Below are positions 37,477 to 39,466 of a stretch of DNA of 64,000 nucleotides, piece by piece. The stretch spans positions 4,343 through 68,342 of the forward strand of contig JABGTR010000022.1 of NCBI GenBank assembly GCA_018646985.1, written 5' to 3'. The notes beneath the pieces were generated by a model. The model ran no database searches, was not told the origin of the DNA, and saw nothing but the letters and a program-made list of their open reading frames with translations. Position numbers and translations under genes: made by a program. This stretch comes from Minisyncoccota bacterium. GTDB taxonomy: Bacteria; Patescibacteriota; Microgenomatia; UBA1400; PJMF01. The stretch's first letter is position 1; each line of letters begins with the position of its first letter.

Positions 37477-37550
37477 TGGACCTGAGGGGATTCGAACCCC
37501 TGACCTCCTGTATGCCATACAGGCGCGCTAGCCAACTGCGCCACAGGCCC
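37477..37550 (-). tRNA. tRNA-Ala (anticodon GGC)
   Basis: Reverse complement GGGCCTGTGGCGCAGTTGGCTAGCGCGCCTGTATGGCATACAGGAGGTCAGGGGTTCGAATCCCCTCAGGTCCA. A G3:U70 pair is present. CCA is not encoded. Confidence 0.85.
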
Positions 37551-37655
37551 TTTTATTTATTTTTAAAAGAGAAAACTCATTTTACCACGGAATCATCCCT
37601 AGCAAAACGCTTTTTGTTACACTTCTGATAGGCATGGCCATTCATAGTAAGTTCA

Positions 37656-38039
37656 GTGAAAAAACTTACCAAACATTGGCTCTCATTAGCAGAAAAAGAT
37701 TTTCTGGCTGCAGACTATCTTTTCAATGGTGCTCGTTACCCTCACGCCATTTACTTTTTATGTCAAGCAATCGAAAAAATACTCAAGGCAGATTTAATTG
37801 AATCCTCAGATTCAAAGCCACCACATACCCACAATCTATCTAGTCTAGTAAGAAAAGTATCATTTAAAATACCAGCTAATAATAAAGTCGCCATTGAAGA
37901 GCTAGACAAACACTATAAAAGAGTCAGATATCCAGACATTGCTCAAGTATCGTATAATACTAAAAAGAAAATTTTACCAATATTTAATCATGGTAAGAAA
38001 ATATATTTATGGATAAGAAATCAATTCAAAAAAAATTAG
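37656..38039 (+). CDS. HEPN-domain protein, the putative toxin of a HEPN/MNT module
   Basis: HEPN hallmarks: A..DL..A..L...G.Y..A.F..QQA.EK.LKA, THNL and RVRYPD. Confidence 0.65.
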   Translation: MKKLTKHWLSLAEKDFLAADYLFNGARYPHAIYFLCQAIEKILKADLIESSDSKPPHTHNLSSLVRKVSFKIPANNKVAIEELDKHYKRVRYPDIAQVSYNTKKKILPIFNHGKKIYLWIRNQFKKN

Positions 38040-38326
38040 TAAAATTTTTATATAAACTCAAGAAAAAAATTAGAGTTAATCAAATTATTGTCTTTGGCTC
38101 ACGCGCTAATGGGAATGCACATGAAGATAGCGATCTAGATCTTTTTATATTATCAGATGATTTTAAAAAAATGAACGAAGATCAACGTCTAGATTTATTA
38201 CATAAAGTAGCATCAAAAATAGATTTTGATATTGATCCATGGGGATTTACACCCAAAGAAGCAGAACAAGCCGATCCTCAAACTACTTTAGGTGATGCTT
38301 ACTTGCATGGAATAAGATTGATTTAA
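38009..38326 (+). CDS. Minimal nucleotidyltransferase (MNT), the putative antitoxin partner of the HEPN protein
   Basis: NTase motif VFGSRANGNAHEDSDLDLFIL (GS...D.D). It overlaps the HEPN gene. Confidence 0.72.
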   Translation: MDKKSIQKKLVKFLYKLKKKIRVNQIIVFGSRANGNAHEDSDLDLFILSDDFKKMNEDQRLDLLHKVASKIDFDIDPWGFTPKEAEQADPQTTLGDAYLHGIRLI

Positions 38327-38527
38327 ATCAATCAAAATACTAATTAATATATCTATCTATTTAGCAATAGATCAATTATTCACCAAATTGAAGAGTAGGG
38401 GAGTGATAAAAAAATACCCACAAGTTAGACCGATGTATCAAGACTAATATTTAGATAACCCTATTAGCAGTCATTAAGCTACTCTGCTAATGACCGATAA
38501 CAAAAAATCCACTTACTTTAGCTAAAT

Positions 38528-39466
38528 TTACAAATCTGAGTGATATTCCCGGTGCATTTTCCTCAACTTTGGCCGAGTAACGTGAGTATAGATCTGAGTA
38601 GTCGCAATATTTTTATGACCCAGCATCTCTTGAACATCGCGCAGCCCAGCTCCATTAGAAAGTAGATCTGTGGCAAAAGTATGCCTGATGCCATGAGGAC
38701 TAATCTTAACCGGTAGCTTTGCCTGCCGGGAATACTTATCAACAATCCGCTGTACACTCCTAGTAGTCAATCTCATTGACTCACCGTCCTCAGTAATGTC
38801 CGGCTTACTCCCAGAGAAACGAATAAACACTGGCCGCCATTCGTCATCACGGCTTCCCAGCCATCTTTCTAGCCAGGCTGCTGCTCGATCACTTAAAAAC
38901 ACCACCCTAGGGCGCCGACCCTTACCAATCACCCCAAATTCACGACGACTAATGTCAACCTGATCTCTATTTAGAGAAACTAGCTCGCTAACTCGGAGGC
39001 CAGTCGAAAATAATACCTCTAGAATGGCTTTGTCCCTCAAACCTGCTTTTTTTCCTGGACTGGGTATGTTTAGAAGTCTCTCCATCTGCTCAGTCGATAA
39101 AAACTGCATATGATGAGACTCAGCCTTAGGAAGATCTACTTTTTCTGGCTGAAGAACGTCCTCATCATTTCTAATGAGCCACTTTAACCAAGAACGTAGG
39201 GCAATGATATGATATGACTGAGTTGCTTTGCTTAAAGGATCGCCATGCATATCAGTATATCTATTTAGATATACCCTAAATTTTCTTAGAATTTCCTGAT
39301 CAAGATCTTTAATATCCTTCTTGTGGGCTTGATCCTGAAACCAATCGACAAATCTATTGAGATAGTGACCGTAGTTTCTGACCGTCAATGAACTTAAATT
39401 TCGCTCAACCTCAAGGTGCTCTAAAAAATTTATGACTGATTCGCGAGGTAGAGTAGAGGTAGGCAC
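38528..39466 (-). CDS. Tyrosine site-specific recombinase, XerC/XerD-like
   Basis: C-terminal catalytic region HGIRHTFATDLLSNGAGLRDVQEMLGHKNIATTQIYTHV (R..H..R..Y). Length is Xer-like at 312 aa. Confidence 0.85.
   Translation of the reverse strand: MPTSTLPRESVINFLEHLEVERNLSSLTVRNYGHYLNRFVDWFQDQAHKKDIKDLDQEILRKFRVYLNRYTDMHGDPLSKATQSYHIIALRSWLKWLIRNDEDVLQPEKVDLPKAESHHMQFLSTEQMERLLNIPSPGKKAGLRDKAILEVLFSTGLRVSELVSLNRDQVDISRREFGVIGKGRRPRVVFLSDRAAAWLERWLGSRDDEWRPVFIRFSGSKPDITEDGESMRLTTRSVQRIVDKYSRQAKLPVKISPHGIRHTFATDLLSNGAGLRDVQEMLGHKNIATTQIYTHVTRPKLRKMHREYHSDL

Follow-up and report, generated by a model that had tools for sequence, protein, structure and literature searches.

A HEPN/MNT gene pair between a core xer gene and a resident tRNA-Ala(GGC) gene in a Microgenomates/Pacebacteria-like bacterium

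The window (i.e., the whole 64-kb stretch of DNA that was analyzed) comes from a candidate-phyla-radiation bacterium, namely a Microgenomates/Pacebacteria-like member of Patescibacteria. Directly after gyrA, we find a tRNA gene, a pair of genes encoding a HEPN protein and a minimal nucleotidyltransferase (MNT), and a tyrosine recombinase gene (xer). An earlier note on this DNA had annotated the same four features, and all of them were indeed recovered by ARAGORN, Rfam, and Pfam. The features are as follows:

34722..37469, plus strand: gyrA, an ORF of 915 aa with DNA_topoisoIV and DNA_gyraseA_C domains; conserved right-hand anchor of the slot
37476-37550, minus strand: tRNA-Ala(GGC), called by ARAGORN and matching Rfam tRNA with 65.7 bits
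37579..37587, minus strand: extended -10-like box TGGTAAAAT, ~28 nt upstream of the tRNA gene; putative promoter
37656-38039, plus strand: HEPN gene (127 aa; Pfam HEPN PF05168, "HEPN-T" type); predicted toxin, first gene of the cassette
38009-38326, plus strand: MNT gene (105 aa; NTP_transf_2/Polbeta); predicted enzymatic antitoxin, second gene of the cassette
38464..38500, no strand: hairpin TTAGCAGTCATTA / TAATGACCGATAA, an inverted repeat directly downstream of the xer stop
38528-39466, minus strand: xer, tyrosine recombinase (312 aa; Phage_integrase and N-terminal SAM-like domains)
39467..40951, no strand: ORF-less 1.5-kb spacer from xer to the DUF5656 gene, containing scattered blocks of strong conservation; outside the cassette
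40293..40320, minus strand: 28-bp dif-like site ATGTCGCACAA-TATAAC-TTTTGCGACGT, 11-6-11; candidate Xer core site
46175-47069: DUF6922/AbiEii, a second toxin-antitoxin-like insertion of this backbone, lacking a recombinase

The profile matches of HEPN, MNT, and the recombinase are strong and beyond chance. The recombinase matched Phage_integrase (E=9e-43) and also Phage_int_SAM_1 in Pfam, which gives it the two-domain architecture of the ~300-aa class. Among the NCBIfam profiles, XerC (246 bits) and XerD (239 bits) scored best, whereas integron integrase and generic site-specific integrase reached only 102 and 24 bits, respectively; a phage-type integrase is hence not what these profiles indicate. 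The scores are nonetheless under the curated equivalog cut-offs for XerC (335) and XerD (330), and the same holds for the subfamily PRK00283 (235.5 vs a cut-off of 279) and for the XerA equivalog; a divergent candidate-phyla-radiation lineage is a plausible reason for this shortfall. The protein aligns over its full length to E. coli XerD (1A0P, E=6e-38) with all of the catalytic R, K, H-x-x-R, H, and Y present in the motifs TGLRVSEL, GKG, HGIRH, LGH, and IYTHV. It thus shares with the chromosome-dimer resolvases XerC/XerD the length of ~300 aa, the SAM-like N-domain, and the R-K-H-R-H-Y catalytic domain, and its C-terminal tail is like that of XerD, in agreement with the earlier description of a 312-aa recombinase with a XerD-like catalytic tail.

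Homologues of Xer were hit at E<=1e-20 in 7,999 of 8,000 scored candidates, the best 120 of which were 70-92% identical, and the identity was graded from 55 to 92% through records of Pacebacteria, Woesebacteria, Gottesmanbacteria, Levybacteria, Shapirobacteria, and Chisholmbacteria. The best 80 xer loci of the genome scan lay on 80 different contigs, and the 80 Microgenomates species compared have a common gene order: namely, the DUF5656 gene, a spacer, xer, a variable gap, and gyrA-DHH-gyrB. In all species with sufficient upstream sequence (66/66 loci), the DUF5656 gene preceded xer on its strand, and gyrA was convergent downstream of xer in 53 of the 60 species with enough downstream sequence. 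No second tyrosine recombinase was found within the 64-kb window. Because of the best scores as XerC/XerD, the catalytic residues, the identity series, and the conserved synteny, xer is regarded as a core, vertically inherited XerC/D-type recombinase that is not borne by the cassette; furthermore, gyrA belongs to no mobile unit.

The 3' end of the tRNA gene faces gyrA, 7 nt past the gyrA stop (37469), as had been pointed out before, and its 5' end faces the cassette. In every locus among L004-L043 holding both xer and gyrA, tRNA-Ala(GGC) lies between the two genes, and it also adjoins gyrA in the near relatives L083, L085, L086, and L087. The box TGGTAAAAT aligns with TGCTAAAAT / TGTTAGAAT, which precede the tRNA gene in L083, L085, and L087, and would represent the tRNA promoter; by the same alignment, it is placed at the inner edge of the conserved tRNA-side DNA. 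As judged from these comparisons, tRNA-Ala(GGC) is ancestral in the interval between xer and gyrA. The earlier note had suggested a search for direct repeats of part of the tRNA gene; none was found between 27 and 50 kb, with no fragment of at least 14 nt near the block, and when the whole window was searched with the tRNA by blastn-short, only other tRNAs and chance 8-10-mers were matched. Separately, we noticed in the relative L015 that 19 nt of the tRNA-Ala 3' end recur as a direct repeat 110 nt downstream, and this tRNA may therefore have been an attachment site elsewhere. An apparent duplication of the tRNA gene in L005 was a scaffold-gap artefact (a run of N).

Unlike xer, neither HEPN nor MNT was matched in any of the 80 related species; the HEPN/MNT genes and the recombinase are hence not one block, as the earlier note had proposed to examine in relatives. 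Of the four nearest relatives, three, whose Xer is 81-86% identical, have the order xer, about 300 nt, tRNA-Ala, and gyrA with no HEPN/MNT, and the xer-gyrA gap of near relatives is 298-394 nt with the tRNA gene as its sole occupant. The slot of L082, the nearest relative with an 88% identical Xer, is occupied by different DNA. Across the group, the gap is anywhere from 68 to 7,697 nt long and contains mostly singleton ORFs of unrelated families, with no transposase or integrase families in the 52 ORFs of the variable gaps; the xer-gyrA interval thus turns over quickly across the whole group. The hairpin stretch (38464..38500) aligns with L082 and L083, but the DNA from there to the tRNA promoter does not, which places the hairpin at the inner edge of the conserved xer-side DNA. 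With the conserved edges at the xer hairpin and the tRNA promoter, therefore, the inserted segment is delimited to roughly 37630-38430. Only the HEPN/MNT segment deviates in GC content (0.31 for the cassette vs 0.387 for the window and 0.43 for xer). Repeat searches around the cassette and within the window identified neither a donor nor an insertion scar, and potential terminal repeats were only chance 10-14-mers.

A pair of HEPN (125-127 aa) and MNT (105 aa) genes with a 28-31-nt overlap recurs in five unrelated neighborhoods, which makes six independent contexts including the present locus, and no recombinase or tRNA was called on the flanks examined in the five others. Because the same pair occurs there without recombinase or tRNA, and because the DUF6922/AbiEii insertion likewise has no recombinase, the cassette is considered a self-contained bicistron in a hypervariable intergenic slot, moving without a recombinase of its own.

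As for the two proteins of the cassette, their assignment by the earlier note held in profile searches: HEPN matched PF05168 across the full domain (E=3.2e-18), and MNT matched NTP_transf_2/Polbeta with E of about 1e-11 (NTP_transf_2, 1.4e-11; Pfam). HEPN belongs to the family PF05168, not DUF86, and has no canonical Rx4-6H RNase motif; it has the motif R89-V-R-Y-P-D94, and the residues H59, R91, Y92, and D94 are invariant among 19 homologues. HEPN-T has been described with a "conserved H elsewhere" (PMC3710099). The AlphaFold model of HEPN (pLDDT 94.4) has as its nearest solved folds TT1696 (1UFB), ST0689 (1WOL), and TM0613 (1O3U), and the sacsin HEPN domain is also among the nearest structures. 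Compared with these archaeal/thermophile MNT-HEPN dyads, our protein shares the PF05168 HEPN fold (TM-score 0.72-0.79) and the signature of a conserved H in helix 3 and an R-Y-P-D loop, but is only 19-28% identical, with the gene order reversed, and belongs to a small, tight subfamily: a search of 1.84 billion proteins gave 18 cluster representatives at E<=1e-30, all contained in a wider set of 1,662 at E<=1e-10. As in PF05168 dyads, HEPN is a standalone protein of ~120-135 aa that adjoins a minimal nucleotidyltransferase and has the distribution of a mobile pair; it has no match in PADLOC or NCBIfam. MNT has the catalytic motif G30-S31-x10-D42-x-D44 (FGSRANGNAHEDSDLDLF) conserved across four cassettes and matches the candidate defence-system profiles PDC-S09 and PDC-M05A. 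The first 31 nt of MNT overlap the HEPN gene, and HEPN comes first here and in 5/5 homologous cassettes, so that the antitoxin is not the upstream gene; in HEPN/MNT toxin-antitoxin pairs, MNT is almost always 5' (PMC3710099), and the remark in the earlier note that this order is the less common one was thus correct.

Most likely, the cassette functions in the manner of type VII HEPN/MNT toxin-antitoxin systems, the mechanism of which is outlined in two reports (PMC7641770, PMC11586414). As in HepT/MntA of type VII (Shewanella SO_3166/SO_3165, Aphanizomenon, and Legionella), there are two small adjacent genes for HEPN and a minimal nucleotidyltransferase, with a mobile and patchy distribution; MNT shares the GSx10DxD center, and Shewanella MntA (5YEP, E=3e-5) is its best solved relative. 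In contrast to that system, HEPN here is of PF05168 (HEPN-T) without Rx4-6H and only a distant fold match to HepT structures (TM about 0.6), HEPN comes first with the 31-nt overlap, and MNT scores 43.8 bits against NCBIfam MntA, under the cut-off of 60. Based on the motifs, the AlphaFold fold, and the type VII literature, HEPN would be a small RNase-type toxin of the HEPN-T branch, in which R91/D94 and H59 may replace the canonical Rx4-6H, and MNT with its intact GSx10DxD center would neutralize HEPN by nucleotidylylation, possibly on the invariant Y92; toxicity and AMPylation in this PF05168 subfamily are predictions. Given that the MNT start is internal to the HEPN gene, translation of MNT is probably coupled to that of HEPN, and with such coupling the toxin-first order would be tolerable for a catalytic antitoxin.

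Alternatively, HEPN might be an inert, substrate-binding partner of MNT in a two-subunit modifying enzyme like kanamycin nucleotidyltransferase, with a housekeeping or resistance-type role. The lack of the canonical Rx4-6H and the toxin-first order, which is atypical for HEPN/MNT toxin-antitoxin pairs, would be consistent with such an enzyme, as would the nearest HEPN structures, i.e., uncharacterized structural-genomics proteins and the sacsin domain, and HEPN domains have indeed been exapted as substrate-binding domains of MNTs (PMC3710099). H59, R91, Y92, and D94 are, however, invariant as expected of an active HEPN-T (PMC3710099), the patchy and context-independent occurrence with absence in close relatives is typical of selfish toxin-antitoxin modules, and MNT matches profiles of defence candidates; we thus consider the enzyme possible but unlikely.

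Upstream of xer, the 28-bp dif-like site, a palindrome, has one match in the 64 kb of the window against none in shuffles. It was found in about 70 of the 80 species and, in all metagenome loci that also contain xer (85/85), it preceded that gene in the same orientation. The reverse complement of the site agrees with B. subtilis dif at 17/28 positions, which was equalled by 5 of 20,000 shuffles. A 28-bp 11-6-11 site genetically linked to xer is reminiscent of the single-recombinase Xer modules (XerS/difSL, XerH/difH, and XerA/dif); in the XerS and XerH systems, dif adjoins the recombinase gene (PMC5357621). GC skew has one sign over the 64-kb window except for the gyr block, and in 31 of 32 related species the two far flanks agree in sign as well; a replication terminus or origin at the locus was rejected on these grounds. 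While dif is expected at the replication terminus, the site linked to xer is thus off the skew switch in the window. Other roles of the 28-mer were also rejected: there was no match in viral contigs, as would be expected of a phage or plasmid attP, and no consistent -35 or -10 geometry of a promoter across species. The surrounding spacer contains blocks conserved against relatives, among them 39960-40090 and 40660-40740, but neither an ORF of at least 60 aa nor one with a family match; a 56-aa ORF (40237-40407) considered as ribosomal protein S21 had no family match. Likewise, CCAGGCTAGCCTGG is not a genome-wide REP element, with two occurrences only, both in the spacer. No structured RNA in the spacer was matched in Rfam at gathering or at E<=1, and a consensus fold of 12 species (RNAalifold) gave only the palindrome and one short hairpin. 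Among the papers listed by a full-text literature search, none referred to Patescibacteria together with Xer or dif.

It might be supposed that xer of Microgenomates is coupled to this off-terminus site of its own and that Xer action there and at the half-sites near xer of many species drives local inversions, gene turnover on both sides, and cassette capture. If so, a housekeeping recombinase would serve here as the basis of an integron- or IMEX-like platform, but we regard this as improbable. More specifically, the resident Xer could have inserted the cassette and other variable genes at dif-like or pseudo-dif sites, in the way of IMEX elements or Acinetobacter pdif modules, which often carry toxin-antitoxin genes. 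Such capture would be consistent with the conserved dif-like site that precedes xer by 0.2-6 kb throughout the lineage, with additional half-sites that many species have close to xer in direct or inverted orientation (inverted, e.g., in L011, L016, and L024), with a ~130-nt element beside the site that occurs in both orientations among species, and with gene-flux hot spots on both sides of xer. The window has, however, no half-site and exactly one copy of the site, which does not flank HEPN/MNT; the cassette and the site are on opposite sides of xer, no copy of the site was found in viral contigs, and the five other contexts of the cassette show no xer. Capture of the HEPN/MNT pair by Xer is, therefore, very improbable.

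The headline of the earlier note, a compact genomic island in which an integrase of its own and HEPN/MNT cargo had integrated at tRNA-Ala(GGC), is hardly conceivable: a tRNA, a tyrosine recombinase, and toxin-antitoxin cargo within 2 kb, the low GC of the cassette, and the repeat in L015 speak for it, but the recombinase is in the same place in all relatives with cargo or none and scores as XerC/D, a second tyrosine recombinase within ~10 kb was seen in only 1/88 related loci, the tRNA gene has the cassette on its 5' side, no tRNA fragment is repeated in the window, and the cassette occurs elsewhere without integrase or tRNA. While tRNA-linked integrative islands and prophages likewise have tRNA, tyrosine recombinase, and accessory cargo close together, the recombinase here is core, there are no att repeats, and the block does not vary as a unit; xer and the tRNA gene are kept in relatives lacking HEPN/MNT. 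The tests proposed in the earlier note thus leave its annotations and its fallback of a housekeeping xer with a hitchhiking toxin-antitoxin module, which agrees with the synteny, the profiles, and the absence of the cassette in relatives, but not the island.

In conclusion, we consider it highly probable that xer and the tRNA gene are fixed and inherited and that only HEPN/MNT was acquired, the pair most likely acting by a type VII-like mechanism. Three unrelated things then lie side by side: a core xer, an old tRNA-Ala(GGC) with its own putative promoter, and an acquired HEPN/MNT segment of ~0.8 kb, which was gained in the present lineage within the stretch from the hairpin 3' of xer to that promoter. 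The cassette itself is ordinary, one more of the HEPN/MNT type in a flexible intergenic slot. The combination of tRNA, tyrosine recombinase, and toxin-antitoxin genes is therefore insufficient to call an island, and this caution weighs most in small candidate-phyla-radiation genomes where xer adjoins a tRNA gene. The small HEPN-T subfamily, always toxin-first with an internal MNT start, is a testable variant in the regulation of an enzymatic antitoxin. More interesting than the cassette is the 28-bp site, which is very strongly conserved, linked to xer across Microgenomates, and off the GC-skew switch; should it be the target of Xer, how and where Microgenomates resolve chromosome dimers becomes a question.

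The earlier note read the tRNA-Ala(GGC), HEPN, MNT, and tyrosine recombinase genes next to gyrA as an island formed by tRNA-targeted integration, and gave as its own alternative a housekeeping xer with a hitchhiking TA module. All of the features were found by ARAGORN, Rfam, and Pfam within 37476-39466, as it had listed them:

37476-37550, minus strand: tRNA-Ala(GGC) (ARAGORN and Rfam)
37656-38039, plus strand: HEPN gene, 127 aa (Pfam HEPN PF05168, entire domain, E=3e-18)
38009-38326, plus strand: MNT gene, 105 aa (NTP_transf_2/Polbeta, E about 1e-11)
38528-39466, minus strand: tyrosine recombinase (xer), 312 aa (SAM-like N-domain and Phage_integrase catalytic domain, E=9e-43)

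The motifs quoted for the two small proteins were also found (R89-V-R-Y-P-D94 in HEPN and G30-S31-x10-D42-x-D44 in MNT); their genes overlap by 31 nt, and the 3' end of the tRNA indeed faces gyrA, 7 nt from its stop. The island reading is wrong, since xer and the tRNA are old residents of this locus in relatives and the window has no repeat of any tRNA fragment near the block. It is the alternative that is right; of this block, solely the HEPN/MNT cassette is accessory.

The recombinase is a core Xer. When its NCBIfam profile matches were compared, XerC (246 bits) and XerD (239 bits) came out on top, with integron integrase (102 bits), invertases, and generic integrases far lower, and every match was below the curated equivalog cut-off. 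The protein could be aligned along its whole length with E. coli XerD (1A0P; E=6e-38), an alignment in which the XerD-like tail remarked on before was seen, and possesses the catalytic residues R (TGLRVSEL), K (GKG), H-x-x-R (HGIRH), H (LGH), and Y (IYTHV). Of 8,000 scored candidates, 7,999 had E<=1e-20, with 70-92% identity in the top 120; the named homologues belong to Pacebacteria, Woesebacteria, and related candidate phyla, and the source organism is itself a member of Patescibacteria of the Microgenomates/Pacebacteria type. An identical recombinase in the same gene order was found on a 92-kb ENA metagenome contig. We then scanned species, one genome each, and read the best 80 xer loci (80 different contigs, 55-74% identity) by tblastn of the neighbour genes in the window. 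The shared backbone is composed of a LytR_C gene, a TPR gene, yebC, a DUF5656 gene, a spacer, xer, a variable gap, gyrA, a DHH gene, and gyrB, in which the DUF5656 gene is upstream of xer on the same strand (66/66 loci with enough sequence) and gyrA is downstream and convergent (53/60). No second tyrosine recombinase was found in the 64-kb window, and only one of 88 related loci had one nearby. That locus, L058 (1960-2859; 34% identical to Xer), has it inside the DUF5656-xer spacer, and its record carries the label Bathyarchaeia, probably by a binning error.

The tRNA-Ala(GGC) is ancestral to the xer-gyrA slot. Among the related xer loci numbered L004-L043, it is located between the two genes in every locus holding both, at 10 to 6,099 nt from gyrA and on the opposite strand in eight species; also, it abuts gyrA as in the window in the near relatives L083 and L085/L086 (Xer 86% identical in each) and L087 (81%). 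We noticed variable DNA to either side of this tRNA in L004-L043. Between xer and gyrA, the distance varies from 68 to 7,697 nt with a median of 1,529, and the 41 loci with a gap long enough to scan gave 114 ORFs, mostly singletons. In the Pacebacteria-like subset, the gap ORFs represent unrelated families, for example EamA, a ZnuABC/Fur set, SIMPL, NUDIX, GNAT, Bro-N, and Tad4, with no integrase or transposase among them. In one species (L015), 19 nt of the tRNA 3' end (GAATCCCCTCAGGTCCACA) recur as a direct repeat, at 11300-11318 and again at 11429-11447, 110 nt downstream of the tRNA; this is possibly an att scar of a lost element, and tRNA-Ala may hence have acted as an attachment site elsewhere. 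What looked like a comparable repeat in L005 turned out to be an artefact of a scaffold gap.

A HEPN or MNT match at this locus was found in none of the 80 species. The near relatives keep xer, then 298-394 nt with the tRNA as sole content, and then gyrA. What is still alignable with them is the hairpin at 38464-38500 just past the xer stop and TGGTAAAAT at 37579-37587 just upstream of the tRNA, and the approximately 0.8 kb in between is not. In the nearest relative, L082, whose Xer is 88% identical, other DNA occupies the place of the cassette. The cassette is AT-rich (GC 0.31 versus 0.387 for the window) and has no flanking repeats. As a side observation, gyrB in L087/L088 (10854-12936), the relative with an Xer 81% identical, contains an intein with an Intein_splicing domain, giving a product of >1,000 aa, and gyrB in the window encodes 680 aa without an intein.

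The cassette is autonomous. Word-indexed homologues of HEPN numbered only 22, the nearest non-identical one being 54% identical, and an exhaustive profile search gave 1,662 cluster representatives at E<=1e-10, of which 18 reach E<=1e-30. Contig context was read for five homologues, down to 32% identity, and in all five a HEPN gene of 125-127 aa comes first and overlaps a 105-aa MNT gene by 28-31 nt. The five sit in unrelated surroundings (a Fic gene; obg-nadD; an ABC transporter; sugar-modification genes; an MFS transporter), none of them with a recombinase or tRNA close by. Having the toxin first is hence a fixed feature of the subfamily and, as the earlier note remarked in calling it less common, the reverse of usual MNT-HEPN dyads (PMC3710099). 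The cassette is a HEPN-T/MNT pair of a small toxin-first subfamily, a new member of a pair type already known. A second lineage-specific TA-like pair, DUF6922 (E=3.5e-17) and an AbiEii nucleotidyltransferase toxin (E=2e-11), is located at 46175-47069 (plus strand) between tgt and tsf, accompanied by an unknown 295-aa ORF (45209-46096, minus strand); tgt and tsf are adjacent in L083 and L085. Small TA cassettes have been gained by this lineage at several intergenic sites without a dedicated recombinase.

As to function, we would tentatively favour a type VII-like pair. The nearest structural matches of the predicted HEPN model (pLDDT 94) are the uncharacterised PF05168 proteins TT1696, ST0689, and TM0613 (TM 0.72-0.79), with type VII HepT a more distant match; the canonical Rx4-6H motif is missing, and 19 homologues showed no variation at H59, R91, Y92, or D94. 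In MNT, the catalytic GSx10DxD is intact, and Shewanella MntA is the best-matching relative of solved structure. The predicted HEPN RNase would be neutralised chemically by MNT, a type VII mechanism described in PMC7641770 and PMC11586414, and translation of MNT may be coupled to that of HEPN via an internal start. Alternatively, the two proteins might form a non-toxic two-subunit nucleotidyltransferase, which we regard as unlikely.

The strongest conserved block of the xer-DUF5656 spacer, at 40293-40320 on the minus (xer) strand and 827 nt from xer on its upstream side, is a site of 28 bp. It is composed of two inverted 11-bp arms and a 6-bp centre (ATGTCGCACAA-TATAAC-TTTTGCGACGT), and a repeat finder parsed the 6-nt centre alike in other species. 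The window contains one copy of the site, and about 70 of the 80 Microgenomates species have it; the motif alone retrieved 119 metagenome contigs, 85 of them with xer as well, and in each of those 85 it is upstream of and co-oriented with the gene. Compared as its reverse complement, the site agrees with B. subtilis dif at 17/28 positions (reached by 5 of 20,000 shuffles) and, in the same register, E. coli dif at 15/28 (70 of 20,000), both dif sequences having been checked against PMC3025954. In the single-recombinase systems XerS and XerH, dif adjoins the recombinase gene (PMC5357621).

Half-sites, in which the left arm and part of the centre (ATGTCGCACAATA) run into unrelated DNA, were noticed near xer in many species, direct or inverted and sometimes abutting a TTGACA box; an inverted one is about 230 nt from the full site in L011, L016, L024, and L037, and a direct one is 80-350 nt upstream of xer in L005, L012, L013, L021, and many others. 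None is in the window. They might serve in autoregulation of Xer or act as pseudo-recombination sites. We also noticed a conserved element of ~130 nt (…AAAAAGCCGTTTTTGAG…; about 39960-40090), placed between xer and the 28-bp site, that is flipped in about 9 of 40 Pacebacteria-like species (compare L005 with L036, L019, and L020); the L005-L036 alignment scored 102 on the minus and 36 on the plus strand. The 1.5-kb spacer (39467-40951) has no credible ORF yet contains strongly conserved blocks, and neither an Rfam match nor a consensus fold was found in it. It further shows a -10-like box (TCCTATAAT, 40660-40668) followed by AGTTTTCCACAATTTTCACG…ATATCAAACTATATCAC (40674-40716), two CCAGGCTAGCCTGG palindromes (40478-40493 and 40548-40563), and a terminator-like hairpin (40576-40597). 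The conserved blocks may be small RNAs.

The GC skew keeps its sign across the 28-bp site in the window, and in 31 of 32 species the two far flanks agree in skew sign, which places the site away from the terminus. Nor does it flank HEPN/MNT, and it hence does not rescue the island reading. We take the site as a possible core site or operator of Xer, with an off-terminus dif, an Xer operator, and a local rearrangement site as candidate readings, and this xer-linked dif-like site is the lead worth keeping.
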